From Candidatus Omnitrophota bacterium (GTDB lineage: Bacteria; Omnitrophota; Gorgyraeia; Duberdicusellales; 4484-171): a DNA stretch of 64,000 nt. Under the pieces are notes generated by a model. It did no database searches and had not been told where the DNA came from. It saw nothing but the letters and a program-made list of their open reading frames with translations. The translations under genes were made by a program, and so were the position numbers. Location: NCBI GenBank assembly GCA_021735045.1, contig JAIPHU010000002.1:10120-74119 (forward strand). Reading direction: 5' to 3'. Shown here in pieces: positions 1-60,777 of this stretch (the first letter of the stretch is position 1; the number at the start of each line of letters is the position of its first letter).

Positions 1-318
1 TTTCGCTATCAGGCGACTTTAAATTTTAATTTATCTGATAAAAAAAGAGGTGCTGCTGAGACTATTGATATCTCTAAGGGCGGTTTGTGTTTTAAAAATG
101 GCAAAAAACTTAAAAAAGGAGATAAAATAGAGGTGGAGCTTATGGTTTTGAATAAAAAAGAAAGGTTGAACCTTGTGGGTCAAGTAGCTTGGGTTGCACG
201 AGCTGAAGAAGACAGCAAGGGTTTTGCAAGATATTATAAGATAGGAATTGAGTTTTCTAAACTTAATCAGAAGGAAAGAAAAATTATTACCCAAGCAATT
301 GAAGATATAGCAAAATAA
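1..318 (+). CDS. PilZ-domain protein, 5'-truncated by window edge (frame open from nt 1)
   Basis: No stop codon from nt 1 in the frame of the 85..318 ORF. C-terminal pattern VAWVARAEE..GFARYYKIGIEF is typical of the PilZ C-terminal beta-barrel. Paralogous to the PilZ tail of the GT2 synthase at 6044..7876. Confidence 0.55.
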   Translation, partial: FRYQATLNFNLSDKKRGAAETIDISKGGLCFKNGKKLKKGDKIEVELMVLNKKERLNLVGQVAWVARAEEDSKGFARYYKIGIEFSKLNQKERKIITQAIEDIAK

Positions 319-402
319 AAAATAGATATTTGAATCTTTTTTGATCTTATAGTATGATAACATATATTGATTCGATAAAACGATTAAAGTTGAAAGATAA
401 AA

Positions 403-642
403 ATGATTAGAAAAGATAAATTATTAGTTAAATTAGATAAACTACAAGAGCTAGAAGGTAGGTTGATTCCTTTGTTGGATAAGCATCTTTCGGCTTCTCT
501 AGACTTTAGTCAGTTGCCAAAAGAGGAAAGGGATAAGACCATGGAATTTTTAAAAAGTAGGGTAAATATACAGAAAAAACACACTGAATCGATTAAAAGT
601 ATCAAAGAAGAATTAACCGAATCCGAAAAAAATGTTTACTAA
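403..642 (+). CDS. small helical protein 'A1' of unknown function; paralog of 8822..9046
   Basis: 79 aa. Shares IP(L/I)..KHL(S/D)(A/S) and a distal conserved His with the 8822..9046 protein (about 30% identity by eye). Stop overlaps the start of the next ORF, suggesting translational coupling. Confidence 0.5.
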   Translation: MIRKDKLLVKLDKLQELEGRLIPLLDKHLSASLDFSQLPKEERDKTMEFLKSRVNIQKKHTESIKSIKEELTESEKNVY

Positions 643-826
643 AGAAGATTACTTAACTTATTTTGATCAATTAGCAGATATTTATAAAGATTCTATTAAT
701 CTCTACACTGATTTGCTAAATGGTTTACAAGATAAAGCAATCCGAAATAAGTTACTAGCAGTTGCTTCAGAAAATATGGAAGCTTTTCGTTTTATAAAAG
801 AAGAAAAGACAAAATTTAATAAATAA
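632..826 (+). CDS. small helical protein 'B1' of unknown function; paralog of 9046..9249
   Basis: 64 aa. N-terminus M(F/L)(T/S)KEDY and a DK(A/E)I(R/K)N block are shared with the 9046..9249 protein. Overlaps the A1 stop by 11 nt. Confidence 0.5.
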   Translation: MFTKEDYLTYFDQLADIYKDSINLYTDLLNGLQDKAIRNKLLAVASENMEAFRFIKEEKTKFNK

Positions 827-837
827 AAGGAGAAGTT

Positions 838-1209
838 ATGCCTGCCAACAAAAAAATACTTATTGCTGATGATGAACCAGATTTTGTGGAACTTATATCC
901 ATGCGTCTTGAAGTTAACGGCTATGATGTGGTTTCGGCTAAAGATGGCCAAGAGGCAATTGATAAAACTAAAAGTGAAAAGCCGGATTTATTGATTTTAG
1001 ACTTAATGATGCCCAAAGTTGATGGGTTTGAGGTTTGCCGGATGCTAAAGTTTGACGATAATTTTAAGGATTTGCCGATAATAGTACTTTCTGCTCTTGA
1101 TCAGCAACAAGATCGGGAAAAGGCCGTTGAGGCTGGAGCCGATGAATACTTTATCAAACCTTTTGATTTAAGCTTACTTTTAACTAAGATTCAAGAACTT
1201 ACTGGATAA
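838..1209 (+). CDS. CheY-like response regulator, receiver domain only
   Basis: Has the DDEPD acidic pocket, the phospho-acceptor context LILDLMMP, and a KPFD C-terminus. RBS aaggag lies upstream. Close paralog of 12183..12545. Confidence 0.9.
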   Translation: MPANKKILIADDEPDFVELISMRLEVNGYDVVSAKDGQEAIDKTKSEKPDLLILDLMMPKVDGFEVCRMLKFDDNFKDLPIIVLSALDQQQDREKAVEAGADEYFIKPFDLSLLLTKIQELTG

Positions 1210-1216
1210 AAAAAGC

Positions 1217-1244
1217 TTGCATTATTTATTTTATTTATTAAAAT
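1217..1244 (+). promoter_or_regulatory. sigma70-like promoter TTGCAT-16-TAAAAT upstream of the EF-G gene
   Basis: Read directly: -35 TTGCAT at 1217..1222 and -10 TAAAAT at 1239..1244, about 75 nt upstream of the ATG at 1319. Confidence 0.45.
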
Positions 1245-1318
1245 AAGTACTTCATTGCTTGCCTTCCTGTTTTTTGTTTGGATAATAAATAATAATTTGT
1301 AAAAGTGAGGAAGATAAA

Positions 1319-3421
1319 ATGGCACGAAGAATCAGTTTAGAAAAAGTACGTAATATTGGAATTATGGCTCATATTGATGCCGGTAAGACAACACTTACCG
1401 AACGCATTCTTTTTTATACCGGGCGGTCGCATAAAATGGGGGAAGTCCATGATGGAGCTGCGGTAATGGATTGGATGAAACAAGAGCAAGAAAGAGGTAT
1501 AACCATAACTTCAGCGGCAACTACTTGTAGTTGGTTGGATCACAGAATAAATATAATCGATACTCCTGGCCACGTTGATTTTACTGTTGAAGTTGAACGT
1601 TCTTTGCGAGTTTTAGATGGATCAATTGCTGTATTTTGTGCTGTAGGTGGGGTGGAACCTCAGGCAGAAAAGGTATGGCATCAATCTGATAAATATGAAG
1701 TGCCAAAAATCGCTTTTGTAAATAAGATGGATAGGGCTGGAGCAAACTTTTTTGAAGTAGTCAAAGACATTGAAGAAGAGCTGGGGGCAAATGTTATCCC
1801 TTTACAAGTTCCTATTGGGGCTGAAGATAATTTTAGAGGAATAATCGATCTAATGGATATGAAAGCTTATATCTACGACGATGAGTCTTTAGGTAAAAAC
1901 TTTCACATTGAAGATATACCCACAGACTATCAAGATAAAGCTAAAGAGCATCATCATATAATGGTTGAAAAAGCTGTTGAACTAGATGATTCTTTAATGG
2001 AGAAGTATCTTGAGTCCGAAGATTCTATTTCAAAAGAGGAGCTGGTTAAAGCTATAAGAAGAGGCGTTATAGCCAATAAAATTGTTCCGGCAATGTGTGG
2101 TTCTGCCTTTAAGAATAAAGGGGTCCAGCGCCTTCTTGATGCGATAACTCTTTATCTTCCTTCTCCTCTGAATTTACCACCAGCTGAAGGAACAGATCCA
2201 AACGATCCTGAGAAAATAATTAAAAGAGAGCCTAAAGATGATGCACCTTTTTCAGCTTTGGCGTTTAAAGTACAAGCTGATCCTCATATGGGAAAACTGA
2301 TTTATTTTAGAGCTTACTCAGGCAAACTTGAGGCAGGCTCATATATTCAAAATGTAACCAAAGGAAAAAAAGAAAGAGTAGGGAGAATCTTACAGATGCA
2401 TGCAAATCAACGTGAAAGCCGCCCGGATATATATGCTGGTGATATTGCTGCAGCAGTAGGGCTTGATAATACTACAACAGGAGATACTTTAACTTCAGTT
2501 GAAGATCAAGTGTTGCTTGAGGCTATGGAGTTTCCCGCACCGGTTATGGCAATAAGTATTAAGCCAGAAAGTAATGCCGATCAAGATAAAATCTCAAAAG
2601 GCTTAAGCCGTTTAGCTGAAGAGGATCCCACTTTTACAGTTAAGACCGATAAAGAAACTGATGAAACTATTATATCAGGAATGGGGGAGCTACACCTTGA
2701 TGTTATTGTTGACCGCCTTAAGCGTGAGTTTGGTGTTTCAGCAAAAGTTGGAGCTCCTAAAGTTGCTTATCGGGAAACTATTTTAGGGACTACAAAAGAA
2801 GACTATAAGTATGCAAAACAAACTGGTGGCCGCGGCCAATACGGCCATGTTGTCTTAGAGCTATCACCATCTAAGTCTTCGGAAGGTTTTGATTTTATCA
2901 ATAGCATTAAAGGAGGGGCAATACCTCGTGAATATATTCCGGCTGTGGAAAAAGGGGTAATCGAGGTAATGAAAAAAGGTATTTATGCAGGGTTTCCGGT
3001 AGTTGATGTGAAGGTAAACTTAGTAGATGGTTCTTATCATGATGTGGATTCATCAGAATTTGCTTTTAAAATGACCGGAGGCGAGTGTTTTAAGAAAGCT
3101 TTTAATAAGTGTGAGCCAGTTTTATTAGAGCCTTCTATGTCAATTGAGATTACAACTCCGGAAGATTATGTGGGCGGAGTTGTGGGCGATATCTGTTCGC
3201 GTCGCGGTAAAGTTATAAATATAGATTCAAAAGGTAAACAACAACTAATTTCAGCAGAAGCCCCTTTAGCTGAAATGTTTGGCTATGCTAGTACTTTACG
3301 TTCTTTAAGTAGTGGGCGAGCAAATTATTCAATGCATTTTGAAAAATACGTACAAGTTCCTTATCAGATAGCAGAAAACATTATCGAAGAAAAGCAAAAA
3401 GAAAAGGAAGCAAAAAAATAA
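1319..3421 (+). CDS. fusA: translation elongation factor G (EF-G), probably a paralog located outside the str operon
   Basis: 700 aa. G1 motif AHIDAGKTT. Near-canonical N-terminus [42 protein letters not shown]. Domains IV/V are recognisable. No rpsL, rpsG or tuf neighbours. Confidence 0.95.
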
Positions 3422-3589
3422 TCAATAAATTTTTAATTGCGCTGATTGATTTAACCTCTAAGCAGGAATCTAACTTCTTGCGCCGTAAAAACTTACCTAC
3501 TAATTATTTTCTTCTTTTTGTAATTTTTTATTTTTTAAACTAAGATATTTGTTATAATAGTTCTAAACTCAAATGTTTTAGTTTATATA

Positions 3590-6031
3590 ATGAAGAAAAT
3601 AATCAATCTTGTCTTTAGTTTAATTGTAGTTGCCGGATTAACTTCATTTCTATACCATTACACCCAGCAAGCAGAAATAAATTATTATCAGGGGCACCGC
3701 TTATTTTTAAATGGTAACTATAGCAAAGCCATTCCTTACTACAAAAACTCTCTTAAAGCTGACCACAGACAATTTAAGGCAAAAAAAGAGTTAGCTTATT
3801 CTTATTTTTGGACTGATAATCCAAAAAAATCTATACCCCTTTTTGAAGATATTTCTAAAAAAAATCCAAAGAATCAAGAATTAAAACTATATCTGGCTAA
3901 GGCCTATTCTCGAACTGGTAGCCGTAACAAGGCGCTATCGATTATGGGTAAGATTGAGACTAAGGACAAACAACTAGATATAAAAATGACCTTAGCAGAA
4001 ATTTATATCTGGAACAATCAGTTAACTAAAGCCAGAGAGTTGCTTAGAGAAGTTCTAGCTCAGAATCCTAGTAATAATAAGGCAAAGTTTCTTTTAGCTA
4101 AAACTTTTTATTATGATCAAAAAAGTAAAAAAGCTTCAAAAATCTTAGAAAATTTACTAGAGGAAGGAAAAGAACTGCCTGAGAATGTTAAAGAAAAAGA
4201 AGTAAGAGGGCTTTTAGCTCAAACTTATATATCAAGCAATCAGAGTCAAAGGGCGGTTGAGCTTTATCAGCAGTTGGTTGATCAGAATCCTAACGATATA
4301 GATTTAAAAATGAAATTAGCTGAACTCTTAAGCTGGACTAAAGAACTAGAAAGATCAGAAGATTTGTATCGAAAAATAATTAAAAAATCCTCCCGGAAAA
4401 GAGAAGCCTATCTAGGCCTAGCTAAGGTATTAATTGGGCAAAACCGGTATAAAGAAGCTATCAGTATAATTGATAAGATCGGAAAAATAAAAGGAACTAA
4501 AAATGCAAAGCTGATGTATGGAAAAGCATTGTTATATTCAGGAAAACCAAAATTAGCGCGGGATATTTTTGCTAAACTATTAAAAGATTATCCTCAGGAT
4601 TTAGAAACTAAAGAATTATTGGCAGATGCTTACGCCTATAGTAAAAAATATAAAAAAGCGATTTTATTATATCGGAAAATTCTAGTTAAAACAGATCGTC
4701 GCAAAACAAAAAAAGGTTTGGCAGCAGTTTTAAGTTGGAATCAGCAATACCAAAAATCAATTAAATTATACGATCAATTACTTGCCGAGGAGTACGATCC
4801 AGAGGTTAAACGGCAAAAAGCTCGCGTATTAGGCTGGAGCAAGAACTACCAGAAAGCTTTAGCTGAATATAAGGATTTACTGGATAAGGAAAAAAGTTCA
4901 GCGATTAGGCTGGAGATGGAGGCAAAACAAGCTTATTGGCAGGGAGAAGTTAAGAGTGCAATCAACAATTACCAAAAGCTCTTGATTGCAGAGCCAGATA
5001 ACGTTGAAGCTGCCTTTGATCTCAGCCAGCTTTACTCTTATCAGGATATGTGGGAGGAGGCGATCAACCAATATGAAAATATCTTAAAAGTACAACCACT
5101 GCATTCCAGAGCCAGAGAAGGCTTAGAAAAAGCAAAAATTTTTTATAAAAAAGTTAAAACCAGGCTAGATTATCTATTTTTTGAAGCTGATTCTCCCGAC
5201 AGAACTACAGACATTAAAAAACACCAAGTTTTAAAATCAGCATCTTTTTTTATTGCTAAAAATAAAAAAATAAAGATTTCTTCTGACTTTGCCCAGAGAA
5301 GTTTTTCTGATTTTTCTTCGATTTCAGAAAGTAAGACCCAGCTCGAAATTAGCTACCAAAATAATCCCGATTGGAATTTAAGCGCTTATTACGGTTTAGT
5401 TAATTACTACAAGCACCTCGATGAGTTATTCCATCTATTTGGAGCATCTTTTTACCATCGTTTTTTTGATCGGGGGATGTTTAACTTTAATTACCAACGC
5501 CAAAGGCTGACCGACAACAGCCAGTTGATTAGAGATTACGCTTACCGGCATAGTTTTGAAAATAAAATTGATTTTGATTTAACGTCGAAACTTAAAATGG
5601 GCCTTGACTGTAGATTAGCCTATTATTTTGATGCAAATTTTTTAGTTGAACCAGGAATTGATTTTACCTATTATTTTTCTAAAGAGCCCAGGCAATTTTA
5701 TCTTACCTATAGGTACTTTTTTAAAGAATTTAGAAAAGAAAGTTCTGATTATTGGACACCGCGGGGGTTTTCTACCAATAAATTAACTTTAGCTTGGCGT
5801 CATTACCTAAATTCAGACCAATTATTTTTTGGGGCAGATCAGCTTTATTATCAGCTAAAGTATGAAGTTTCCTTAGATTCAACAGACATTTTAATTCATA
5901 AATTTATTGGCCAATTTAACTGGGATATTAATAAGAGTCTGAATATCCACTTTGGTGGTTCTTTTGCCGATACAACTTCCAATGTTTATCAGGAAAAAAG
6001 AATTACGGCGGGGTTAAGCTATTATTTTTAA
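3590..6031 (+). CDS. TPR-repeat protein with C-terminal outer-membrane beta-barrel (BcsC/PgaA/PelB-like exopolysaccharide export porin)
   Basis: Signal/anchor peptide at the N-terminus. About 500 aa of TPR-like repeats. C-terminal ~300 aa has alternating aromatic/hydrophobic strands and ends ...LSYYF (terminal Phe, the BAM signature). Followed 12 nt later by the GT2 synthase. Confidence 0.75.
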   Translation: MKKIINLVFSLIVVAGLTSFLYHYTQQAEINYYQGHRLFLNGNYSKAIPYYKNSLKADHRQFKAKKELAYSYFWTDNPKKSIPLFEDISKKNPKNQELKLYLAKAYSRTGSRNKALSIMGKIETKDKQLDIKMTLAEIYIWNNQLTKARELLREVLAQNPSNNKAKFLLAKTFYYDQKSKKASKILENLLEEGKELPENVKEKEVRGLLAQTYISSNQSQRAVELYQQLVDQNPNDIDLKMKLAELLSWTKELERSEDLYRKIIKKSSRKREAYLGLAKVLIGQNRYKEAISIIDKIGKIKGTKNAKLMYGKALLYSGKPKLARDIFAKLLKDYPQDLETKELLADAYAYSKKYKKAILLYRKILVKTDRRKTKKGLAAVLSWNQQYQKSIKLYDQLLAEEYDPEVKRQKARVLGWSKNYQKALAEYKDLLDKEKSSAIRLEMEAKQAYWQGEVKSAINNYQKLLIAEPDNVEAAFDLSQLYSYQDMWEEAINQYENILKVQPLHSRAREGLEKAKIFYKKVKTRLDYLFFEADSPDRTTDIKKHQVLKSASFFIAKNKKIKISSDFAQRSFSDFSSISESKTQLEISYQNNPDWNLSAYYGLVNYYKHLDELFHLFGASFYHRFFDRGMFNFNYQRQRLTDNSQLIRDYAYRHSFENKIDFDLTSKLKMGLDCRLAYYFDANFLVEPGIDFTYYFSKEPRQFYLTYRYFFKEFRKESSDYWTPRGFSTNKLTLAWRHYLNSDQLFFGADQLYYQLKYEVSLDSTDILIHKFIGQFNWDINKSLNIHFGGSFADTTSNVYQEKRITAGLSYYF

Positions 6032-6043
6032 ATTTAAATTATA

Positions 6044-7876
6044 ATGAATAAGAAAAAATTAATTGATTCTTTGATTTTATTTACTTTGGTTGCAGTGATG
6101 GTCTATGTTGTAACCAGGGCGGTTTTAGTTGGTTATGCTGATTATACTGGCTGGGATCGTTTTAGTGCTATCGGTTTGTTGCTGGCAGAGTTGTTTGTAG
6201 TTTTTCATGGCGTAGGTTATACCTTAAACATCTATCGGGCTTATAGGTATAGTGGTGGAAAAGAAAAGATGCAAGAGGTAGCAAATAAACCTTTGCCAGA
6301 GGAACCATCGGTTGCGATATTTGTTGCTGCGCGCCATGAACCAAAAGAAGTTTTAGAGGAAACTTTTATTAGCATCAAAAACTTAAAATATAAAAATAAG
6401 AGTATTTATTTCCTTGATGATAGCTCTAAAAGCACTTATAAAAAAGAAGCAGATCAATTAGCAAAAGATCTAGATTTAAAGATTTTTCGACGCAAGGATC
6501 GCCACGGAGCAAAGGCAGGAATCATTAATGATTGTCTAAAGACAATTAATTCTAAGTATTTAGTTGTTTTTGATGCAGATCAGAATCCGCTACCTGAGTT
6601 TTTAAATCGTGTGGTGGCGTTGATGGAGTCGGACCAAAGACTTGCTTTTGTCCAAACCCCTCAATTTTATAGTAATGTGGAAGGTTCACAAATTGCCAAA
6701 GCGGCGGCTTTTCAGCAAGCGGTATTTTATGAATATATCTGTGAAGGAAAAAGTAGCCAGGATGCGATGTTTTGTTGCGGAACAAATATTATTTTTCGCA
6801 AAAAAGCCTTAGATCAAGTAGGTGGCCTAGATGAAAGTACAGTTACCGAAGATTTTGCCACTTCTTTTAAATTTCACCAAAAAGGCTGGAACTCTTTATA
6901 TTACAATCATGTCTATGCTTTTGGGATGGGGCCGGAAGATTTAGTCGGTTATTTTAAGCAGCAATACCGTTGGGCCAACGGCACGATCACTGTTTTTAAG
7001 AAAGTGTTAAAGAATTTAATATTGCACCCATTTTCTTTAAAAATTAAACAATGGGTAGAGTATTTACTTTCCAGCAGTTACTATCTAGTTGGTTTTGCCT
7101 TATTTGGCTTGATGCTTTTTCCGATCTTTTATCTTTTATTTGACATCCCTTCTTTCTTTGCTAAGCCACAAGTTTATTTTTTAGTTTTTTTACCTTATAT
7201 AACTCTTTCTTTAAGTATATTTTATTTCGTGTTAAAAGAAAGGAACTATACTGCCGGAGATCTTTTTAAAGGCCAGCTGGCCGGGTTTATAAGCTTTCCG
7301 ATCTATTTGCAAGCCGCTGTTTCTTCCTTTTTTGGCAGAAAGGCTACTTTCGGGATAACCTCAAAAGCAAAGGGGAAGTTTGTATCTTATTTTAGATTGT
7401 GGCCGCAAATTGTACTTTTATTCCTAAATTATATTGCGATTGTCTGGGGAATGAATCGATTCATCTATCAACGTGATCCGGCGGTAGTAATTAATGTTTT
7501 TTGGGCCTTTTATCATTTTTTGCTGTTAGCTTCTATTTTTTATTTTAACGAAAGGATTATTCCTAAGGCTTTTTTAAAAAAAATTGCGAAAGAGAGAATA
7601 GTTGACTATCAAGTTCTCGAGAGAAATCGCCCCAAACCTGAATTAAACTCTAGGAATTGGCCGGTTTGTTTTGCGACCAAGTTGCCGGATCGATTAAAAG
7701 AGGGAACACTGTTGATGGCAAAAGTAAAAAGCAGAGGAGGAAAGCAGCTAATCTTTGACGCAGAAGTTACCTGGGCGAGTCCCAGAAAGCGGTTTGGCGG
7801 TTATGCTACTGGCTTTGGAGTTGCCAAGGCTTCACCGGAAATTATTACCCAATTAAGGAAATTAGTAAAAAAATGA
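6044..7876 (+). CDS. processive GT2 glycosyltransferase with C-terminal PilZ domain (BcsA-like c-di-GMP-dependent polysaccharide synthase)
   Basis: Motifs FLDDSS, VFDADQ, TVTEDF (TED), FCCGTN (FFCGS-like) and QQYRWANG (QxxRW). Multiple TM helices. C-terminal RNRPKPELNSR...GGKQLIF...VTWASP resembles a PilZ domain. Confidence 0.85.
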   Translation: MNKKKLIDSLILFTLVAVMVYVVTRAVLVGYADYTGWDRFSAIGLLLAELFVVFHGVGYTLNIYRAYRYSGGKEKMQEVANKPLPEEPSVAIFVAARHEPKEVLEETFISIKNLKYKNKSIYFLDDSSKSTYKKEADQLAKDLDLKIFRRKDRHGAKAGIINDCLKTINSKYLVVFDADQNPLPEFLNRVVALMESDQRLAFVQTPQFYSNVEGSQIAKAAAFQQAVFYEYICEGKSSQDAMFCCGTNIIFRKKALDQVGGLDESTVTEDFATSFKFHQKGWNSLYYNHVYAFGMGPEDLVGYFKQQYRWANGTITVFKKVLKNLILHPFSLKIKQWVEYLLSSSYYLVGFALFGLMLFPIFYLLFDIPSFFAKPQVYFLVFLPYITLSLSIFYFVLKERNYTAGDLFKGQLAGFISFPIYLQAAVSSFFGRKATFGITSKAKGKFVSYFRLWPQIVLLFLNYIAIVWGMNRFIYQRDPAVVINVFWAFYHFLLLASIFYFNERIIPKAFLKKIAKERIVDYQVLERNRPKPELNSRNWPVCFATKLPDRLKEGTLLMAKVKSRGGKQLIFDAEVTWASPRKRFGGYATGFGVAKASPEIITQLRKLVKK

Positions 7877-8829
7877 TTAAAAAAATTAAATTAATAGTGA
7901 TTATTTTTATTATTATTTTGTTTTCTTTTTTTTATTTTGCATACATAAAGCAAATCGGTAAAAACGATTATTGTTTAACGGGTGCTTTTTTGGCGGACCG
8001 GCCAACTAGAAAAGAGATAAAAGAATTTCAAAACAACTATGGTAAAAAGCCATATTTGGTGATGGTTTTTATTGATTGGGAAAACTTTATTGAAAGAAGT
8101 GTCTATCAAGATATTTTTGCTGCCGGTTCAGTTCCTTTTGTTACCTGGGAGCCTTGGCAGGCCGAAACTAAAGAAGGAATTGATTTTGACCAAATCTTAA
8201 GCGGAGAGTATGATCAGTATATAACTAATTTTATAGAGAGGATCACTAAATTTAAAAAGCCAGTTTTTTTACGCTTTGCTCATGAAGCTAATGGCAACTG
8301 GTATCCTTGGGCCGGGAAAAAAGTGGGAGCTGCGAAGTTAATCGCTGTGCAAAGATATCTCAAGGATTTGGCAGAGAGGCAAGGCCCCAATCAGATCAAG
8401 TGGGTGTTTTCGGTTAATTGGCAAGATATACCGGCAGATAAAGATAATTTTTTTATGAACTACTATCCGGGCAAAGACTACGTTGATTATTTTGGCATTG
8501 ATGGTTATAATTGGGGTGATACGCAAGAATGGAGTCATTGGATGGAATTTGCAGAGATTTTTAAAGATCCCTATCAGATTATAACCTCAGAGACAAATAA
8601 ACCGGTTATAATTTCTGAATTTGGCTCGGCTCAATCCGGTGGAGATAAAGCTGAATGGATAAAAAATACTTTTAAAACTATAAAGAAAATGAAAAGAGTT
8701 AAAGGTTTTGTTTTGTTTAATCTGGATAAGGAAGCAGCTTGGCGGTTTCGGCCCCAAAGTGCAGCTGGTAAGCAACTCAAAAAAGGATTAAACAACTCAT
8801 ATTTTAAGGAGAGCCTGAAAGGTGAATAA
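7873..8829 (+). CDS. membrane-anchored glycoside hydrolase, GH26-like (mannanase/lichenase family)
   Basis: N-terminal TM anchor. LRFAHEANGNWYPWAG matches the GH26 acid/base motif (R.xHEMNg.W.W). VIISEFGS is a candidate nucleophile motif. Start overlaps the GT2 stop (ATGA). Confidence 0.6.
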   Translation: MIKKIKLIVIIFIIILFSFFYFAYIKQIGKNDYCLTGAFLADRPTRKEIKEFQNNYGKKPYLVMVFIDWENFIERSVYQDIFAAGSVPFVTWEPWQAETKEGIDFDQILSGEYDQYITNFIERITKFKKPVFLRFAHEANGNWYPWAGKKVGAAKLIAVQRYLKDLAERQGPNQIKWVFSVNWQDIPADKDNFFMNYYPGKDYVDYFGIDGYNWGDTQEWSHWMEFAEIFKDPYQIITSETNKPVIISEFGSAQSGGDKAEWIKNTFKTIKKMKRVKGFVLFNLDKEAAWRFRPQSAAGKQLKKGLNNSYFKESLKGE

Positions 8830-9046
8830 AAAAGAAATTATCAAGCATCTTAAAGAAGCCTTAATTGCAGAAGAAAAATCAATTCCAATTTATACTAAGC
8901 ATCTTGATTCAGCTGTTTTTTGGACTGGGCTAGGAAAAGAAAAAGCTGAGGAAATTAGAGAGATTCTTTCCGAATTAGCGCGAGGTTCAATGATCCATAA
9001 ACAAATTATTGAAAATTTGATCAAAAAACTAGAAGGGGAAACTTAA
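8822..9046 (+). CDS. small helical protein 'A2' (paralog of 403..642), GTG start overlapping the GH stop
   Basis: 74 aa. IPIYTKHLDSA and SMIHKQII align with A1. Translationally coupled to both flanking genes. Confidence 0.5.
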   Translation: MNKKEIIKHLKEALIAEEKSIPIYTKHLDSAVFWTGLGKEKAEEIREILSELARGSMIHKQIIENLIKKLEGET

Positions 9047-9249
9047 TGCTATCCAAAGAAGACTACCAAGAACATCTTAATCAGATGCTGGAGTTAGAAG
9101 AAAACATGGAAAAAATGTATGAAAATCTAGCCAAGAGGGTTGAAGATAAAGAAATAAAAAATATTTTTAGAAAAATTAGAGATGATGAACAAAAACATGC
9201 CGCTTTGGTGCGAAAAATGAAAAAAATGATTACCGAAGAAAGCAATTAA
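9046..9249 (+). CDS. small helical protein 'B2' (paralog of 632..826); possible half-ferritin-like two-helix protein
   Basis: 67 aa. MLSKEDY... and DDEQKHAAL (an ExxH-like motif). Start is the ATG in TAATG overlapping the A2 stop. Confidence 0.5.
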   Translation: MLSKEDYQEHLNQMLELEENMEKMYENLAKRVEDKEIKNIFRKIRDDEQKHAALVRKMKKMITEESN

Positions 9250-9264
9250 AACTGGTGCAGTAAA

Positions 9265-12168
9265 ATGAGATATAGATTAAGCATTAAAATTTTATTTTGG
9301 TTTTCCTTGTTTATTATAGCAATTGTCGTAGTAAATTTGGCTTCTATTTATCAACTGCAGCGAATGGAAAAGCCCCTAAAAGAAGAGCTAACCCAAGATA
9401 TCCAAAACATCAAAGAAAACGAAATATTAGATCATCTAGCTGAATTGATAAGATACTACGATGAAGTTTTAACTCAATCGGTGCGAAATTATGCTTTTAC
9501 CGGTAACTTAGAGTGGAAGAAGCGCTATCAAAATATTGAACCAAAATTAGATCAGGCGATCAAAGAAGCAATATCTCGTGGAAACAGACAGGATAAAAAA
9601 TTTTTTAAAACAGTTGATCAAGCCAATGAAATTTTGGTCAACCTTGAACATCAAGCTCTAGACTTAGTTGACCAAGGTAATCAAGATCAGGCGATTGCGA
9701 TTTTAGAAAGTAAAAAATATAGAGCCAATAAAAATCAATACTATTCTGGCTTTAGTAGCTACTTACAACGGAGAATGTCTGAGCACGAAAAAGCGATAAC
9801 TTTCTCCAGCAAAGATTTAGAAGAAACAATAAGTATATTAAATGAAATTACAAAACAAAATTATTATTTTTTTATCGCTTCCTTAGCTTTTATCTTGTTG
9901 GTCTCATTCTTGTTTGGCTTATTTTTACGTTTTAATGTTTCTCAGCCGTTAACTCGATTGGTAAAATTAATCAAAGCTTCCGGTAAAAAGGGAGGAAGGA
10001 AAGATCTCGTTAACAATAATTTTGGCTTGATGAAACGAAAAGATGAGATTGGAGAGTTGGCAACAACTTACAACCAAATCTGGCAAGATCTAGAAGAAAC
10101 TACAGTTTCTCGCGAAAAACTAGTAAAAGAAGTTGAGCTGCATAAGGAATCAAAACAAAAGATTAGCCGCCTAAATATGATCTTACGGTCAATCTCAGAA
10201 ATAAACCAAATGCTAATTAATGTTGATAACCGAAAAAGTTTAATTGAAAAAACCTGTCGAGAGCTGATTAATATTAGGGGTTATAAAAGTGCCTGGATTG
10301 TTCTATTTGATCCTCAAGGTGATTTTTTAGATGCTGCATCTTTCGGGCTAGGCGATAAATTTAATTTATTTAAAAATGATATTAAAGTAGGAAGCATCCC
10401 CCGCTGTTTAAGTAAAATATGCAAGGAAAAGAAGCTATTTCAAGTTGATGAGCCGCATCAAATGTGCAAAGATTGCTCCTTATATAAATACCACCAAGGA
10501 GTTAAAACTATTGTTACTTGCCTGCAGCTAGAGGGGGTTGTATATGGGGCCTTAACGGTAGCTATTCCTGAGAGTATTGAAATTGATCAGCAAGAGTTAT
10601 CTTTGCTTAAGGAAATTAGCGGAGATATTTCTTTGGGGCTGCATCACTTAGAAGTTGAAAAAAAACGTCGGTTAACTGAAAATAAGTTAAAAGAAAGAGT
10701 AAAAGAATTTGGTTGTTTGTCAAATTTGGCAAAAATTGTCGAGGAGCCCGGTATTAGCTTAGAAGGAATATTAGCTAAAACAGTGGAGATAATACCTTTT
10801 GCCTTGCAATATCCCAGTAGTGCTTCGGCTCGATTAAGGTATGCAGAAAATGAGTATAATACTAAGGGTTTTAAGGAAACCAATTGTAAATTAAAAGAGG
10901 ATATTTATGTTGATTTAAAAAAGGTTGGTTTTATCGAAGCTTGTTATTCTTTAAGTATACAGGATGAAAAAGGGGAGTGTCCTTTTTTAGAAGAAGAAAA
11001 TACTTTATTTAGATTGATAGCGGAACGGCTAGGCAGAATTATCGAACGAAAAAAAGCCGAAGAGTTTTTAGAAGAAGCTAAAAATAAATTCAGTAGTTTA
11101 GTGGACAATGTTCCCGGGGCTATCTATCGATGTGCCAATGATTCAAAATGGACTATGAATTATATTAGTGATGAAATTGAGAAAATATCTGGTTATCCGG
11201 CTAGTGATTTTATTAAAAATAAGGTAAGAACTTATGAAAGTATAATTTACAAAGAAGACAAGGATTTGGTCAATAAAAAGATTCAAGAAGCTATAGAAAA
11301 AGGAAAATCTTATAATATTGAATACAGAATAGTTAATAAAAATGATAAGGTTGTATGGGTGGGCGAGAAAGGGAAAGGTGTATTCAATAAAGAGGAAAAA
11401 TTGATTTGGCTTGACGGTGTTATCTTTGATATTACTTTACAGAAGAAAGCAGAAGATAAATTAGAAAAAGCAATAAAAATGAAGTCAGATTTTTTATCCA
11501 CAGTTTCTCATGAGTTGCGTACTCCACTGGCTGCAATCAAAGAAGGGATAAATATAGTTTATGACCAATCCGCCGGTAAAATTAACAAAGAGCAGAAAGA
11601 ATTTTTGACGATATCAAAAAGAAATGTAGACCGCTTGGCTCGTTTGATCAACGATGTCTTAGATATCCAGAAATTAGAATCAGGCAAAGCGGAGTTTAAT
11701 TTTAAAAAAGAGAATATCAATGACATAATTAAAGAAGTTTTTGAGACGATGCAGCCCCATGCAGCTAAAAAGCAATTACAGTTAAAATTAAATCTAGATA
11801 GTAATATTTCGAAGATAAAAGTTGATCGGGATAAGATCATTCAAGTTATCACCAATTTGATGAGTAATGCAATTAAATTTACTGAACAAGGGAAAGTAGT
11901 TATAAAAAGCTTGTTAGAGCAAAATGCGATAAAGGTTATAGTCTCTGACACAGGGCCGGGGATAAAAAAGGAAGATTTGTCAAAATTATTTAAGACATTT
12001 CAACAACTTCAAACTGGAAAAGGACGGAAAACCGGGGGGACTGGCCTAGGATTGGCAATCTGTAAGGATATAATCAACAAACACCGTGGGAAAATATGGG
12101 CAGAGTCAGAACTAGACAAAGGCTCAAAATTTATTTTTTTGCTGCCGATTAAGGAAAGGCGAGCTTAA
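9265..12168 (+). CDS. large sensor histidine kinase (periplasmic sensor, TM, HAMP-like linker, GAF, PAS, HisKA, HATPase_c)
   Basis: Two TM segments flank a ~180-aa extracytoplasmic region. H-box SHELRTPL. N, G1 and G2 boxes (NLMSNAIKFT, DTGPGI, GGTGLGL). A Cys-rich GAF-like segment. Confidence 0.9.
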   Translation: MRYRLSIKILFWFSLFIIAIVVVNLASIYQLQRMEKPLKEELTQDIQNIKENEILDHLAELIRYYDEVLTQSVRNYAFTGNLEWKKRYQNIEPKLDQAIKEAISRGNRQDKKFFKTVDQANEILVNLEHQALDLVDQGNQDQAIAILESKKYRANKNQYYSGFSSYLQRRMSEHEKAITFSSKDLEETISILNEITKQNYYFFIASLAFILLVSFLFGLFLRFNVSQPLTRLVKLIKASGKKGGRKDLVNNNFGLMKRKDEIGELATTYNQIWQDLEETTVSREKLVKEVELHKESKQKISRLNMILRSISEINQMLINVDNRKSLIEKTCRELINIRGYKSAWIVLFDPQGDFLDAASFGLGDKFNLFKNDIKVGSIPRCLSKICKEKKLFQVDEPHQMCKDCSLYKYHQGVKTIVTCLQLEGVVYGALTVAIPESIEIDQQELSLLKEISGDISLGLHHLEVEKKRRLTENKLKERVKEFGCLSNLAKIVEEPGISLEGILAKTVEIIPFALQYPSSASARLRYAENEYNTKGFKETNCKLKEDIYVDLKKVGFIEACYSLSIQDEKGECPFLEEENTLFRLIAERLGRIIERKKAEEFLEEAKNKFSSLVDNVPGAIYRCANDSKWTMNYISDEIEKISGYPASDFIKNKVRTYESIIYKEDKDLVNKKIQEAIEKGKSYNIEYRIVNKNDKVVWVGEKGKGVFNKEEKLIWLDGVIFDITLQKKAEDKLEKAIKMKSDFLSTVSHELRTPLAAIKEGINIVYDQSAGKINKEQKEFLTISKRNVDRLARLINDVLDIQKLESGKAEFNFKKENINDIIKEVFETMQPHAAKKQLQLKLNLDSNISKIKVDRDKIIQVITNLMSNAIKFTEQGKVVIKSLLEQNAIKVIVSDTGPGIKKEDLSKLFKTFQQLQTGKGRKTGGTGLGLAICKDIINKHRGKIWAESELDKGSKFIFLLPIKERRA

Positions 12169-12182
12169 AGATAGGGGTAAAG

Positions 12183-12545
12183 ATGAGTAAAAAGATTTTA
12201 ATTGTAGATGATGAGCCAGATATTTTAAAAATTGTAATTTTTCGGCTCAAGAATAAGGGCTATCAAACAATCAGTGCAACCAGTGGAGAAGAAGCGTTTC
12301 AGTTGTTAGGAGAGGATAAACCGGACCTTATCATTTTAGATTTACGAATGCCGGGTATCAATGGGGATGAGGTTTGCCGCAGGATTAAAGCAGACAATAA
12401 TTTAAATAAGATACCGGTAATCTTGTTAACCGCATCTACCGGCCATGATATTGCAGGATTAGCAAAAGATATAGGAGCGGTTGATTTCATTCGAAAACCC
12501 TTTGATAGTCAACATTTTATCAATAAAATAGAGAATGTTCTCTAA
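12183..12545 (+). CDS. CheY-like response regulator, receiver only
   Basis: DDEPD, LIILDLRMP and KPFD motifs. 15 nt downstream of the kinase. Paralog of 838..1209. Confidence 0.9.
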   Translation: MSKKILIVDDEPDILKIVIFRLKNKGYQTISATSGEEAFQLLGEDKPDLIILDLRMPGINGDEVCRRIKADNNLNKIPVILLTASTGHDIAGLAKDIGAVDFIRKPFDSQHFINKIENVL

Positions 12546-12675
12546 AAAAATAGTATTATTTCTTTTAAGAAAGTTCTTTACAATTGTCTTAAAGAAGGTA
12601 CAATTAAGTTAGTATTAAATTGATCATTGACACAGAGAGAGAAAAAGAGGATCGGAAAGCAAGGAGAAAGAAAGT

Positions 12676-12972
12676 ATGGAAGAAAACAAGAAAATTTACG
12701 TTGGCAATCTGAACTATGACACTACAAAAGAAGATTTGCAGAAAGCAATTGAAGAAGCTGGTGCCACACCTACAGATGTAACCATTATTAGTGACAAATA
12801 CACCGGCAGATCAAAGGGGTTCGGCTTTGCAGAGTTTGAGACAGAAGAAGATACTCAGAAAGTGATTGAAGCCTTAGAAGGAAAAGAATTAGCAGGAAGA
12901 AACTTAAAAGTAAACAAAGCTCGGCCAAGAAAACCAAGAAATGATAATTTTGGTTCTGGCCGTCGCTTCTAA
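12676..12972 (+). CDS. RRM-type RNA-binding protein (glycine-rich tail)
   Basis: RNP2 KIYVGNL and RNP1 KGFGFAEF. Long purine-rich leader with RBS aaggag. Confidence 0.85.
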   Translation: MEENKKIYVGNLNYDTTKEDLQKAIEEAGATPTDVTIISDKYTGRSKGFGFAEFETEEDTQKVIEALEGKELAGRNLKVNKARPRKPRNDNFGSGRRF

Positions 12973-13020
12973 CAAGTAAACAAAAGAAAATAGATCCGAT
13001 ACTCTCGTAAGTGTTTCATA

Positions 13021-13055
13021 AGAGGCAGTAGATTGTTCTACTGCCTCTTTTTTTA
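13021..13055 (+). terminator. rho-independent terminator after the RRM gene
   Basis: AGAGGCAGTAG-attgtt-CTACTGCCTCT forms a 10-bp stem, followed by T7. Confidence 0.8.
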
Positions 13056-58418: not shown

Positions 58419-59525
58419 ATGGCTGAAGTACGATTTAAAAACATAAACAAAGTATTTAATGCAGATATAACAGCAGTTTCGGGCCTAGACCTCGAAATAA
58501 AAGACAAAGAGTTTGTTGTCTTGCTTGGCCCTTCTGGCTGCGGTAAATCAACAAGCTTAAGGATGCTAGCTGGCTTAGAAACCCCTACCTCTGGCGATAT
58601 TTTTGTTGGTGAAAAAAAGGTCAATGATATGCCGGCTAAAGACAGAGATATCGCAATGGTCTTTCAGAATTATGCGCTTTATCCGCATATGGATATTTAT
58701 AACAATTTAGCTTTTGCTCTTAAGTTACGGCGCTATTCGCGTGATGAGATAAAAAAAAGGGTAAAAGAAGCCGCAGATATTTTAGGTATTGGCCATCTTC
58801 TTGACCGAAAGCCCAAAGAAATTTCTGGAGGTGAGAGGCAAAGAGTGGCTGTAGGTAGAGCCATTGTCAGAAAGCCTCAAGCATTTCTTTTTGATGAACC
58901 ACTTAGTAATTTGGATGCAAAGCTTCGTGTTCAGATGAGGACAGAGATTAAAAAACTCCATATAAAGATAAAATCTACAATGATCTATGTTACTCACGAT
59001 CAAACCGAGGCTATGACTTTAGGGGACAGAGTAGCAGTCATGAAAAATGGTAAACTTTTGCAAGTTGATACCCCTTTAGATGTCTATGATCAACCGGCTA
59101 ATAAATTTGTAGCTGGGTTTATTGGATCTCCACCCATGAATTTTGTAGAAGGAATTTTGCGAAAAAAAGATAGTTCGCTCTATTTCTTAGAAAAAGATGG
59201 ATTCCAGATAAAGGTTCCTGAACAGATGCAGCAAAGATTAGAAAATTATATTGAAAAAGAAGTTATTTTGGGGATTCGTCCCGAGAATTTATATGATAAA
59301 CTTTTTGCATCTTATGCAACAGTTGATAATACTATTGATGTTACCTGCGATGTGATAGAGACAATGGGTTCTCAAAATCACCTGTATCTTACAACTAAAA
59401 AACATACAATAATTGCTGTGGTCGATGCTTCTAACAAACCTGCTGTAGGTAGTAGGGTTGAAATAGTATTTGATACTAAAAAAATCCATTTTTTCGACCC
59501 GTCTACAGAAGATACCATTGTATAA
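58419..59525 (+). CDS. MalK/UgpC-type ABC transporter ATPase with C-terminal regulatory (TOBE-like) domain; no cognate permease adjacent
   Basis: Walker A GPSGCGKST, Q-loop, ABC signature ISGGERQRV and Walker B FLFDEPLSNLD. Confidence 0.85.
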   Translation: MAEVRFKNINKVFNADITAVSGLDLEIKDKEFVVLLGPSGCGKSTSLRMLAGLETPTSGDIFVGEKKVNDMPAKDRDIAMVFQNYALYPHMDIYNNLAFALKLRRYSRDEIKKRVKEAADILGIGHLLDRKPKEISGGERQRVAVGRAIVRKPQAFLFDEPLSNLDAKLRVQMRTEIKKLHIKIKSTMIYVTHDQTEAMTLGDRVAVMKNGKLLQVDTPLDVYDQPANKFVAGFIGSPPMNFVEGILRKKDSSLYFLEKDGFQIKVPEQMQQRLENYIEKEVILGIRPENLYDKLFASYATVDNTIDVTCDVIETMGSQNHLYLTTKKHTIIAVVDASNKPAVGSRVEIVFDTKKIHFFDPSTEDTIV

Positions 59526-60777
59526 TTTTTTTGTATATTCAATATTAAATTTCCTTATTATTTCTATCCTTACCCTTATATTTTTAGGTTTAATCTATCC
59601 CTTTTGGGGAATATTTTTCTTATTTATTACCTTAATTTCTTTTTTTGTATTTTATTTTTTTCACAGAAAGTTAATTAGTAAAAATATAAAAATTATTGAT
59701 GATTTAGAAGAAAAAATAAATATATTAGAAGATTCTTTAGCCAAGAAGCATAAAGTCCTAAAATACTTGCCTCTAAAGCAAGAAAAAACTTCTTTTTTAG
59801 TTAAGCTTTCTCAAGAGTTGATTGAACTAGACGATCCTCAAGATATTTTTAATTTTTTACTTGATGCCGTTAAAAAGTTATTTCCTGATTTTACTTTTGT
59901 TTCTTTGTATGAGTTTAACAAAGAAGATCACTCGCTTGAATTGGTTCAATCATTAAAGAAAAAAGAATTGGCGATTAAAGAAAAACAAGGTAGTGAGATT
60001 GAGCGATGGATGATGCGGCAAAATAGTTCTCTTTTAATTGACGATATAAGGAAAGACTTTAGGTTTGACTCTAGTCAGATAGATGGATTTCTTCAACGGG
60101 GATCATTGTCTTTTTTGGCTAGCCCGCTTTCGGTAAAAGGAGATTTTTTTGGAATTATTCGAATTGAAAATAAAGATTCTAATTTTTTTTCCTATGAGGA
60201 TCTAAGATCATTAAGTAATATCTGTGATTTGGGAGCTATTGTGCTCGAACGTGCAAGATTGATAAGAAGAGTTCAAGAGTTGGCCACAACTGACTCACTT
60301 ACTTCTTTATCTTTGCGGAATTATTTTTCCGAACAGGTAAAAGTCGAGTTAAACCGAGCCAAAAACTCTGGATCTAAAGCGGGGCTGATTATGTTTGATG
60401 TAGATGACTTTAAAAATGTAAATGATACACATGGGCATATGGTAGGCGACCTGGTTCTTAAAAAACTTGCAAAAATTTTAAAGAAGCTTGAGAAAAATCC
60501 TCAAACTACTGTTTGTCGTTATGGCGGAGAAGAGTTTATGGTATTAGTTGCTGATACCAACAAGGAAGAACTTTTAAAAATTGCTGAAGGTGTGCGGAGA
60601 GAAGCCTTTAATTCCGTAGTTTCTTATCGGAGGAATAAAGTTAATTTTACAATATCCGGGGGGATAGCTATCTATCCTGATGATGAAAATGATTTTGATA
60701 AAATATTTAATTTGGTTGATAAAACTATGTATCGGGCAAAAAAAGAGGGTAAAAACAAGATATGTTCTTTTTCCTAA
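59470..60777 (+). CDS. membrane-anchored GAF-GGDEF diguanylate cyclase (start uncertain; the annotated ATG overlaps the ABC gene by 56 nt)
   Basis: Two TM helices, a GAF-like region and an active-site RYGGEEF motif. Confidence 0.8.
   Translation: MILKKSIFSTRLQKIPLYNFFVYSILNFLIISILTLIFLGLIYPFWGIFFLFITLISFFVFYFFHRKLISKNIKIIDDLEEKINILEDSLAKKHKVLKYLPLKQEKTSFLVKLSQELIELDDPQDIFNFLLDAVKKLFPDFTFVSLYEFNKEDHSLELVQSLKKKELAIKEKQGSEIERWMMRQNSSLLIDDIRKDFRFDSSQIDGFLQRGSLSFLASPLSVKGDFFGIIRIENKDSNFFSYEDLRSLSNICDLGAIVLERARLIRRVQELATTDSLTSLSLRNYFSEQVKVELNRAKNSGSKAGLIMFDVDDFKNVNDTHGHMVGDLVLKKLAKILKKLEKNPQTTVCRYGGEEFMVLVADTNKEELLKIAEGVRREAFNSVVSYRRNKVNFTISGGIAIYPDDENDFDKIFNLVDKTMYRAKKEGKNKICSFS

Follow-up and report, generated by a model that had tools for sequence, protein, structure and literature searches.

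Why should two pairs of very small genes accompany the genes for a polysaccharide synthase, and why should each pair lie upstream of a receiver-only response regulator? The question is raised by a 64 kb stretch of DNA from a Candidatus Omnitrophota bacterium (GenBank assembly GCA_021735045.1, contig JAIPHU010000002.1, positions 10,120 to 74,119), which is called the window here. The region studied is 1..12545, where every open reading frame (ORF) lies on the + strand. An earlier note on this region had described the pairs, A1/B1 and A2/B2, as members of no described family and as a possible adaptor or phosphotransfer module linking c-di-GMP sensing to two-component signalling. All ORFs called there are confirmed, and a different picture of the proteins emerges. 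As judged by profile comparisons, A and B are two paralogous helix-loop-helix half-ferritins which are encoded by separate genes and together correspond to one rubrerythrin-type four-helix bundle. The A-B pair is very likely a split ferritin-like accessory of the synthase operon, and the loss of the metal-binding residues in A1/B1, together with the CheY-like regulator gene that always comes next, points to an undescribed control of polysaccharide secretion.

Predicted halves of a ferritin-like bundle

The four small proteins fall into two families. A1 (403..642; 79 amino acids, aa; E 1e-27 with a hidden Markov model, HMM, of the A family) and A2 (8822..9046; 74 aa, with a GTG start and an AAGGAG ribosome-binding site; A-HMM E 4e-32) are of the N-half type. 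B1 (632..826; 64 aa; B-HMM E 2e-24) and B2 (9046..9249; 67 aa) are of the C-half type. The identity of about 30% that had been estimated by eye holds up well, with 34% across 29 aa for A1 and A2 (E 2e-5) and 31% across 39 aa for B1 and B2 (E 5e-8), and HMMs built from homologues recover two ORFs of each family, and no others, in the 64-kb window at E-values of 1e-24 to 1e-32.

The affiliation of the pair becomes visible when its two members are considered together. B2 alone matches positions 94-136 of the Pfam Rubrerythrin model (PF02915) with 28.4 bits, over the gathering score of 22.8, and A2 alone matches positions 2-59 with 19.9 bits, which is under that score. Joined end to end, A2+B2 covers positions 3-136 of the 137 in the model with 40.6 bits (E 4e-10). 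Neither A1, nor B1, nor the joined A1+B1 matches the Rubrerythrin model, and no Pfam or NCBIfam model covers the A half. The pair therefore does belong to a described superfamily, that of the ferritin-like proteins and rubrerythrins, as the Pfam and PDB profile checks show for A2/B2. Some annotation pipelines already name members of the family "rubrerythrin" or "ferritin family protein".

The two halves are also related to each other. The A and B HMMs cross-match, and the profiles align over their full length (hhalign probability 93.9%, E 1.6e-7) in a register that pairs E17 with E18, Y24 with Y25 and H59 with H51. Against PDB sequences the A+B profile finds the Due Ferri diiron helix-loop-helix peptides (1.3e-6) as well as 2fzf, bacterioferritin, TM1526 and EncFtn-type proteins; B2 finds Due Ferri, 2fzf, TM1526 and NE0167. 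An AlphaFold2 (AF2) model of the joined A2+B2, made from a 2-row alignment, is a four-helix bundle with helices at 3-26, 39-70, 78-105 and 109-139 (pLDDT 85.9, pTM 0.80), and the top Foldseek matches of this model by E-value are nearly all ferritin-like (probability 0.95-1.0, E ~1e-2). Their TM-scores are low (~0.41), since the helices of the model are connected in a non-native way imposed by the short artificial linker. It is the combination of the PF02915 match, the homology of the A and B profiles, the PDB matches and the predicted bundle which leads to the view that a rubrerythrin-type bundle is divided between A and B. A2 is 100% identical to MCF7873338.1 from a Candidatus Omnitrophica metagenome-assembled genome (MAG), a word-indexed protein search with the joined A2+B2 returned 2 proteins only, and literature searches gave no description of the A-B pair or of this type of operon.

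Separate genes under purifying selection

An exhaustive search with the A profile gave 364 cluster representatives at E <= 1e-3, the best 150 of which are all 72-90 aa long, none of them fused, and B is an ORF of its own at every locus examined. The single polypeptide that characterizes PF02915 proteins was thus not found in this family. In each pair of the window the stop codon of A overlaps the start codon of B, as had been noticed before, by 11 nucleotides (nt) in A1/B1 (ATGTTTACTAA) and by 1 nt in A2/B2 (TAATG). The 11-nt overlap, ATG(C/T)TT(T/A)CTAA, is conserved in both types of A/B pair, and most A proteins terminate in [DN][VA][YF], which is the out-of-frame reading of the B start M-[LF]-[ST]-K; this makes the overlap a hallmark of the family. 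Translational coupling by overlapping stop and start codons would hold A and B at 1:1, which fits a heterodimer.

That the small ORFs are coding, as the earlier note had presumed, is borne out by purifying selection on all four of them (ratios of non-synonymous to synonymous substitution, dN/dS, of 0.04-0.32, or proportions of non-synonymous differences, pN, far below those of synonymous differences, pS). Between the window and L003, a close relative, dN/dS is 0.16 for A2 and 0.25 for B2, and pN is 0.19 for A1 and 0.10 for B1 at a pS that is saturated at ~0.8 (0.79 for B1). Between two other loci, L006 and L015, dN/dS is 0.04 for A1 and 0.11 for B1. The regulator REC1 has a dN/dS of 0.03. A1, B1, A2 and B2 are therefore genes and not chance ORFs.

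A constant genomic partner

In total, 27 loci from a genome scan, a metagenome scan and contig look-ups were examined. The metagenome scan used A2-type sequences only, so the set is biased towards loci of that type, and the contig of one locus (L027) is cut just upstream of A and carries no context information. Among the MAG labels are Omnitrophota, Planctomycetia and Chlorobiaceae. The A-B genes stand after a series of TPR exporter, GT2 and GH26, GH8 or GH5 hydrolase, or directly after the GT2, in L001, L003-L012, L014-L016, L018-L025 and L028, the constant partner across loci being the cellulose-synthase-like GT2. The pair mostly follows the periplasmic hydrolase of the operon, and its start codon often overlaps the upstream gene. 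Each pair had been thought to sit beside a PilZ domain, which applies to A1/B1 insofar as this pair follows the possibly PilZ-derived GT2 tail in most relatives and the PilZ domain of a kinase in the window, but the partner common to the whole family is the GT2 and neither PilZ nor a receiver.

The operon of the window starts with a TPR-rich outer-membrane exporter (3590..6031), an analogue of BcsC, PgaA and NfrA. Its NCBIfam matches (PrsT, PgaA, BcsC) are all sub-cut-off and confined to the TPR parts, the β-barrel with the C-terminal end ...GLSYYF is predicted from the sequence only, and orthologues lie upstream of the GT2 at most loci. The exporter gene is followed by the long-form, cellulose-synthase-like GT2 synthase (6044..7876), which matches Pfam Glyco_trans_2_3 and Cellulose_synt as well as NCBIfam CelA (TIGR03030; 6.8e-70, 235.9 bits against a cut-off of 699). 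Next comes a GH26 hydrolase (7873..8829; Pfam Glyco_hydro_26 1.7e-10) with an N-terminal membrane anchor or signal, which points to a periplasmic location; its slot is taken by GH8 in L018-L021 and L024/25 and by GH5 in L023. No gene recognisable as BcsB-like turned up in the window region or in the related operons.

Two arrangements can be distinguished among the loci. Type I has the order TPR exporter, GT2 of 501-516 aa, hydrolase, A and B, with no adjoining two-component genes. To it belong L001 (Omnitrophota), L004, L007 and L008 (Planctomycetia MAG), L005 and L014, all with GH26, L024/25 (Chlorobiaceae MAG, GH8), the partial locus L023 (GH5), and L028, in which A-B directly follows a 518-aa GT2 without hydrolase or exporter. 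A gene for a calcineurin-like metallophosphoesterase lies just downstream of A-B in L001 (10430..11218; Omnitrophota) and in L004 (11957..12685; Planctomycetia), two unrelated type I loci, and may be another recurrent neighbour. In type II the order is TPR exporter, GT2 of 608-612 aa, A1-type, B1-type, receiver, kinase, sometimes a second receiver, hydrolase and usually A2-type plus B2-type, as in L006, L009, L010, L012 and L015 (GH26), L022, L018/19 (GH8, without A2/B2) and L020/21 (GH8-A2-B2-kinase). The window and L003 represent a rearranged type II, in which A1-B1-REC1 stands behind the PilZ kinase together with fusA, and A2-B2-HK2-REC2 ends the operon.

The extra length of the GT2 goes hand in hand with the A1/B1 branch: the long GT2 occurs with A1-B1-REC at 10/10 distinct loci and the short one (501-518 aa) at 0/6. 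At 8 distinct loci the GT2 of 608-612 aa is followed by A1, B1 and the receiver, and the distance from A1-B1 to the receiver-only regulator is always <=25 nt. The repeated order of PilZ, A-B and regulator which had been proposed therefore stands for A1/B1 with respect to the regulator (10/10 loci) but not for A2/B2, which in the relatives comes after the hydrolase at the end of the operon, with the kinase and REC2 on either side of it or absent.

Loss of metal ligands in the A1/B1 branch

The two conserved histidines which the earlier note had seen in A are, together with one glutamate, the most conserved residues of the A family: H59 is found in 153/154, H27 in 140/154 and E17 in 136/154 sequences. 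A conserved loop specific to the family lies past H27 (KH-L-x-S-A-x-F-W-T-G). A2-type proteins have S at -3 of H59 and usually D/E at -4 (113/154). The A2 of the window has E17, Y24, H27 and H59, and the helix-2 motif which reads ESxxH in most homologues is GSMIH here, with G at -4. In B2 the residues E18, Y25 and E48-x-x-H51 are intact, and all B2-type members retain E18, Y25 and ExxH.

The ExxH motif had been reported for B2 and not for B1, correctly, and the loss in B1 turns out to be more extensive: all three ligands are gone in the window (Y for E18, N for E48, A for H51). Throughout the B1 type these positions are occupied by Y/F, N/D and A, as scored in seven aligned members and in three more distant ones (L018, L020/21, L022). 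A1-type proteins retain both histidines, H28 and H60 in the A1 of the window, and the helix-1 Glu is missing in most of them.

Two further half-ferritin-like elements were seen among the relatives. The Chlorobiaceae locus L024 carries a second pair, A'-B' (8551..8745 and 9066..9263; the same in L025), directly after the first, and in L020/L021 a solitary ORF of 59 aa upstream of the TPR genes, again a half-ferritin, is over the Pfam Rubrerythrin threshold with 27.6 bits.

The synthase tail, the kinases and the receivers

What distinguishes the long GT2 is an extra cytoplasmic tail of ~100 aa (residues ~500-610; 7541..7873). It starts where the CelA alignment stops, at model position 558 of 714, which we take to be about where the PilZ domain of BcsA starts. 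The tail had been called a PilZ domain outright, and this assignment is now weaker. Against Pfam PilZ the tail of the window has 13.1 bits (E 0.13; gathering score 22.5), 8/10 tails have E 0.02-0.13 (13-15 bits) and 2/10 have no match. The motifs of the window tail are degenerate (KKIAKER, VKSRGG), and among the tails of relatives RxxxR is kept in five and DxSxxG in none. A profile search of the PDB gave no match, Foldseek placed YcgR and MotI among the best by TM-score with nothing significant, and a word-indexed protein search with the tail profile returned 2 partial close relatives only, which have no precomputed PilZ annotation. A PilZ origin of the tail is probable, if by no means assured; canonical c-di-GMP binding by it is unlikely.

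By contrast, the PilZ domain at the left edge of the window (1..318) is genuine, with 46.6 bits (4.5e-12) in the window and 51.6 bits in L026 against the same gathering score. It is not free-standing as had been thought, because it forms the C-terminus of a histidine kinase, HK1, that is truncated by the window edge. The contig of L026 is 100% identical to window 1..420, reaches further upstream and has HATPase_c and PilZ in one ORF, and the syntenic orthologue in L003 reads HisKA-HATPase_c-PilZ. The PilZ kinase (window 1..318, L026 2..1135, L003 2..1525) thus consists of HisKA-HATPase_c, a linker of ~150 aa without a match in Pfam, and PilZ. Its PilZ motifs are canonical, with DISKGG in the window and RRSKR (RxxxR) 15 nt before the window start, and an HK1-type kinase with such a domain would respond directly to c-di-GMP. 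Two adjacent GGDEF genes (59470..60777 and 60762..61724, one of them GAF-GGDEF; Pfam 2.5e-40 and 4.7e-45) lie elsewhere in the window, so the organism probably makes c-di-GMP. In L020/L021, a 233-aa PilZ protein, an MshEN-domain protein and another receiver are encoded upstream of the TPR genes, in the interval that also holds the 59-aa half-ferritin ORF (1294..4058). Further components of both kinds, for c-di-GMP and of the half-ferritin sort, are thus grouped near this type of operon.

The second kinase, HK2 (9265..12168), is the 967-aa histidine kinase previously described, a membrane sensor in which PAS (PAS_3), HisKA and HATPase_c are above threshold and the HAMP and GAF_2 domains that precede them are weak, sub-threshold matches. 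Orthologues with cores 60-63% identical lie within the operon in L006, L009, L010, L012 and L015. No receiver domain was detected in HK2, in HK1 or in the short kinases of relatives. REC1 (838..1209; 123 aa; Response_reg 2e-30) and REC2 (12183..12545; 120 aa; 2.1e-29) reach 105.6 and 102.4 bits with PF00072, against 30.2 required. Their pockets read DDE, ILDL(M/R)MP, LSA/LTAS and (I/R)KPF, the active site of REC1 is the canonical DD/D/S/K, and there is no output domain. Both are thus canonical receiver-only regulators, but at 42% identity they are not near-identical, as they had been called. REC1 orthologues, 63-87% identical, directly follow B1 in L003, L006, L009, L010, L012 and L015, a Response_reg gene follows B1 in L018-L022, and REC2-type orthologues occur in L009, L011 and L015.

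Proposed mechanism and rival explanations

These findings can be combined into the following model. In the cytoplasm, A and B would assemble 1:1 into a heterodimeric four-helix bundle, and the pair would be a conserved cytoplasmic accessory of a system made of TPR exporter, GT2 and periplasmic hydrolase. A2/B2 would be of the ancestral type, with Glu, ExxH and Tyr retained and a dimetal centre bound, and A2:B2 would most likely serve the synthase as a subunit or regulator that depends on metal or redox state. A1/B1 would be a ligand-less duplicate that arose together with the ~100-aa, possibly PilZ-derived GT2 tail and the receiver-only regulator. A1:B1 could then serve as a pseudo-ferritin adaptor through which phosphorylated REC1 (REC1~P) gates the synthase post-translationally. 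In the window, the A1-B1-REC1 cassette would have moved off the GT2 gene to its present place behind the PilZ kinase; as the canonical PilZ domain is on that kinase, any c-di-GMP input would enter there and not at the synthase tail. A precedent for such gating may be seen in Myxococcus xanthus, where the single-domain regulator EpsW~P activates EpsZ post-translationally and proximity labelling suggests direct contact (PMC12802240). The adaptor between a PilZ-type domain and two-component signalling that the earlier note had imagined is plausible in this form, being consistent with the gene order around A1/B1, although the Hpt route it had envisaged finds no support. The model as a whole, a split ferritin-like synthase accessory plus a REC-linked pseudo-ferritin adaptor, is held with moderate confidence; the adaptor and gating mechanism of A1:B1 taken by itself is offered more tentatively, as a serious possibility short of probable. 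A more elaborate version is unlikely: in it, the metal-binding A2:B2 informs the GT2 or its kinase of the state of redox, oxygen or iron, and the metal-free A1:B1 and the degenerate PilZ-derived tail have replaced direct c-di-GMP gating by gating through the phosphorylated receiver.

Several observations speak against parts of this model. The GT2 tail is not demonstrably PilZ, as its Pfam matches are sub-threshold, hhalign against the kinase PilZ gives a probability of 2%, and the AF2 model of the tail, five or six strands and a C-terminal helix, has a pLDDT of 50. The GSMIH of the window A2, in place of ESxxH, means that its metal site may be incomplete. L018 has A1/B1 without A2/B2. In the second pair of L024/25, A' is without H59 and B' without ExxH, and there is no receiver gene, so ligand loss is not always tied to a regulator; A'-B' may have become ligand-dead independently. 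The census of about 20 loci includes many related Omnitrophota, and the co-occurrence counts are therefore not phylogenetically independent. Binding of A to B, to the synthase tail or to REC1 is something that we infer, and A2/B2 could be a co-transcribed stress enzyme without a regulatory role.

This last thought leads to the broadest of the rival explanations, in which A-B is a stand-alone mini-rubrerythrin or ferroxidase for oxidative stress or iron handling that is merely co-transcribed with the synthase genes, and A1/B1 is a copy that is decaying or has taken on a new function and is mechanistically tied to neither REC1 nor the synthase. It draws on the diiron proteins among the best sequence matches (rubrerythrin, Due Ferri, EncFtn/EncB, bacterioferritin), on the position of A-B, mostly last in the operon, and on the lineages concerned, which are mostly known as anaerobes, where rubrerythrins detoxify peroxide. 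On the other hand, the linkage to the GT2 persists across changes of hydrolase family and of the remaining neighbours, the A-B start codon often overlaps the upstream gene, and no rubredoxin or reductase partner gene lies nearby. Mere decay of A1/B1 also agrees poorly with strong purifying selection on ligand-less proteins (dN/dS 0.04-0.11) and with their fixed place between the GT2 tail and the receiver. An incidental enzyme is therefore a minority view that still carries some weight. That A and B are a single rubrerythrin gene broken by a frameshift, or rejoined by programmed frameshifting, is rejected as having practically no chance of being true, even though the joined proteins match one Pfam domain end to end and the genes overlap out of frame. 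The frame offset from A to B varies, +1 at the 11-nt overlap and -1 at the TAATG of the window A2/B2, and spacers of 2 nt and 15 nt separate the genes in L005 and L004, respectively, which rules out a frameshift fusion. The uniform length of the best 150 A cluster representatives, the conserved start of each B (MLSK or MFTK) and the purifying selection on both genes agree with this.

The remaining two alternatives assign A and B to signalling proper. A helical-hairpin phosphatase or inhibitor of REC1~P, in the manner of CheZ or Spo0E, would tune the lifetime of the signal and would not couple REC1 to the synthase. A1 and B1 are small helical hairpins, of which CheZ and Spo0E are also built, and they adjoin the receiver gene in 10/10 loci. 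They have, however, no sequence similarity to CheZ, Spo0E or CheX-type motifs, they co-occur with a GT2 tail that a pure phosphatase would not need, and they descend from a pair that exists without a receiver, all of which makes this reading improbable. Hardly better placed is the idea that A is an Hpt-like protein whose histidine shuttles phosphate between the kinases and the receiver-only regulators, despite two nearly invariant histidines, a predicted fold that is a four-helix bundle, and the position of A1-B1 between kinase and REC1 in the window. None of A1, A2, B1, B2 or the joined pairs matches PF01627 at E <= 1. The joined pair spans the Rubrerythrin model from one end to the other. 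H59 of A aligns with the metal-ligand His of ExxH in B, the histidines stand in the contexts KH[LIV]xS and [KR]H without an HxxKG motif, and both are equally conserved in type I operons, which have no kinase or regulator. As no receiver domain was detected in the kinases, a His-Asp-His-Asp relay is not called for either. The Hpt proposal of the earlier note is thus very improbable, and the split ferritin-like accessory remains the preferred reading of the pair.

Other features of the region

Between REC1 and the polysaccharide operon of the window lies a bona fide housekeeping gene, fusA for EF-G (1319..3421; NCBIfam TIGR00484, 1067 bits). An EF-G gene that is 70% identical lies 4-5 kb downstream of the operon in three type II loci (L006 12116..14215, L009 14480..16600 and L015 14739..16865), which suggests that the arrangement in the window came about by local rearrangement. 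In the comparison with L003, pS is saturated in A1, B1 and REC1 (0.70-0.82) and is 0.21-0.34 in A2 and B2; the left cassette (403..1209) and the end of the operon may have had different histories, by recombination or transfer.

REC2 is followed by a 98-aa ORF (12676..13049) that resembles RRM-type RNA-binding proteins by sequence reading alone. After it comes the sole strong intrinsic-terminator-like hairpin of the region (13020..13049; a 13-bp stem and a T-run). A weak terminator-like site lies within the start of the GT2 gene (6084..6119), and the promoter and terminator scan found no terminator-like site on the + strand between the GH26 gene (7873) and the end of REC2 (12545); beyond the terminator at 13020..13049 the scan of the region was otherwise uninformative. 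In L018, two paralogous ORFs rich in Cys, Gly, Ser and Thr (11079..11318 and 12427..12642; 79 and 71 aa, both starting MKW.KP.L) flank a PAS kinase and occupy the place expected for A2/B2. Their appearance is that of peptide precursors, with no relationship to A or B.

Significance

The ferritin fold is believed to descend from a helix-loop-helix unit that was duplicated and then fused, and the half-ferritins known so far (EncFtn) are homo-oligomers. A widespread family in which the two halves have diverged and are translationally coupled would represent a naturally occurring intermediate of this fold, in heterodimeric form. In synthase-dependent polysaccharide systems, in turn, the gate is usually a c-di-GMP receptor, for example PilZ, PelD, PgaCD, MshEN or the BgsA tail. 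Here, a ferritin-like pair is found in the synthase operon of poorly studied, so far largely uncultured lineages, and in one branch the operon also has a ligand-dead copy together with a receiver and a synthase tail. This makes the operon a concrete candidate, open to testing, for polysaccharide secretion that is controlled by redox state or phosphorylation. If the more elaborate version of the model is true, a half-ferritin that regulates a synthase would amount to a novel form of synthase control and would, at the same time, be a present-day example of the ferritin fold before its halves were fused. Defining the A family would also improve the annotation of hundreds of "hypothetical" small proteins.

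Judged by sequence relationships, the superfamily fold and the kind of synthase-dependent operon are already known. What appears to be new is a naturally split, presumably heterodimeric ferritin-like module that has been recruited to a polysaccharide synthase and linked, in a derived branch, to two-component signalling; the function of the module is suggested by gene order alone.

Comparison with known systems

The closest relatives of the pair are the rubrerythrin and ferritin-like proteins of PF02915 (symerythrin, TM1526 and the PF0695 type). With them, A2+B2 shares the end-to-end match, the predicted four-helix bundle and the motifs E-x6-Y (helices 1 and 3) and (E/S)xxH (helices 2 and 4). 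Unlike them, A and B are two separate genes of ~65-80 aa in every member seen, the A half has its own loop and a shifted ESxxH, there is no rubredoxin domain, the pair is genomically tied to a polysaccharide synthase, and the A1/B1 branch is without metal ligands. EncFtn/EncB (PF22277; PMC5012862) and Due Ferri, the best PDB and NCBIfam matches of B2, are likewise made of two-helix half-ferritin units with a dimetal site across the dimer interface. EncFtn, however, is a homo-oligomer with an encapsulin-targeting tail and an adjoining encapsulin gene, whereas A-B has two diverged partners that presumably form a heterodimer. The scores stay under all the relevant cut-offs (PF22277 19.4/27, NF058679 25.8/90, TIGR04535 20.6/125), and no encapsulin gene is annotated in any neighbourhood examined. 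An assignment of A-B to EncFtn was accordingly rejected, given the sub-cut-off scores, the missing encapsulin and partners that are diverged and not identical. With Hpt proteins (PF01627) the pair has in common that they are small four-helix bundles with a conserved His near kinases and receivers; it differs by the missing sequence match, by a His context of the ferritin metal-ligand type and by a bundle built from two chains.

By its gene content the operon resembles the Bcs, Nfr and Pga synthase-dependent systems, with different accessory genes. Like Bcs, Nfr and Bgs (PMC8892547, PMC8669469, PMC5567048), it combines in one operon a cellulose-synthase-type GT2, a TPR-rich outer-membrane exporter and a periplasmic endo-hydrolase. 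The C-terminal cytoplasmic domain of its long GT2 stands where BcsA has PilZ. In contrast to Bcs, BcsB was not recognised, the hydrolase is of GH26, GH8 or GH5, the GT2 tail is without a convincing RxxxR/DxSxxG pair, and the place of BcsE/Q/R/G is taken by A-B pairs, receiver-only regulators and kinases. The EpsW-EpsZ system (PMC12802240), finally, belongs to a Wzx/Wzy pathway, acts on a phosphoglycosyl transferase and has no ferritin-like partners, and the corresponding link of REC1 is drawn from gene order only, but it offers in a receiver-only regulator that acts on a polysaccharide enzyme the very mode of action proposed for REC1.

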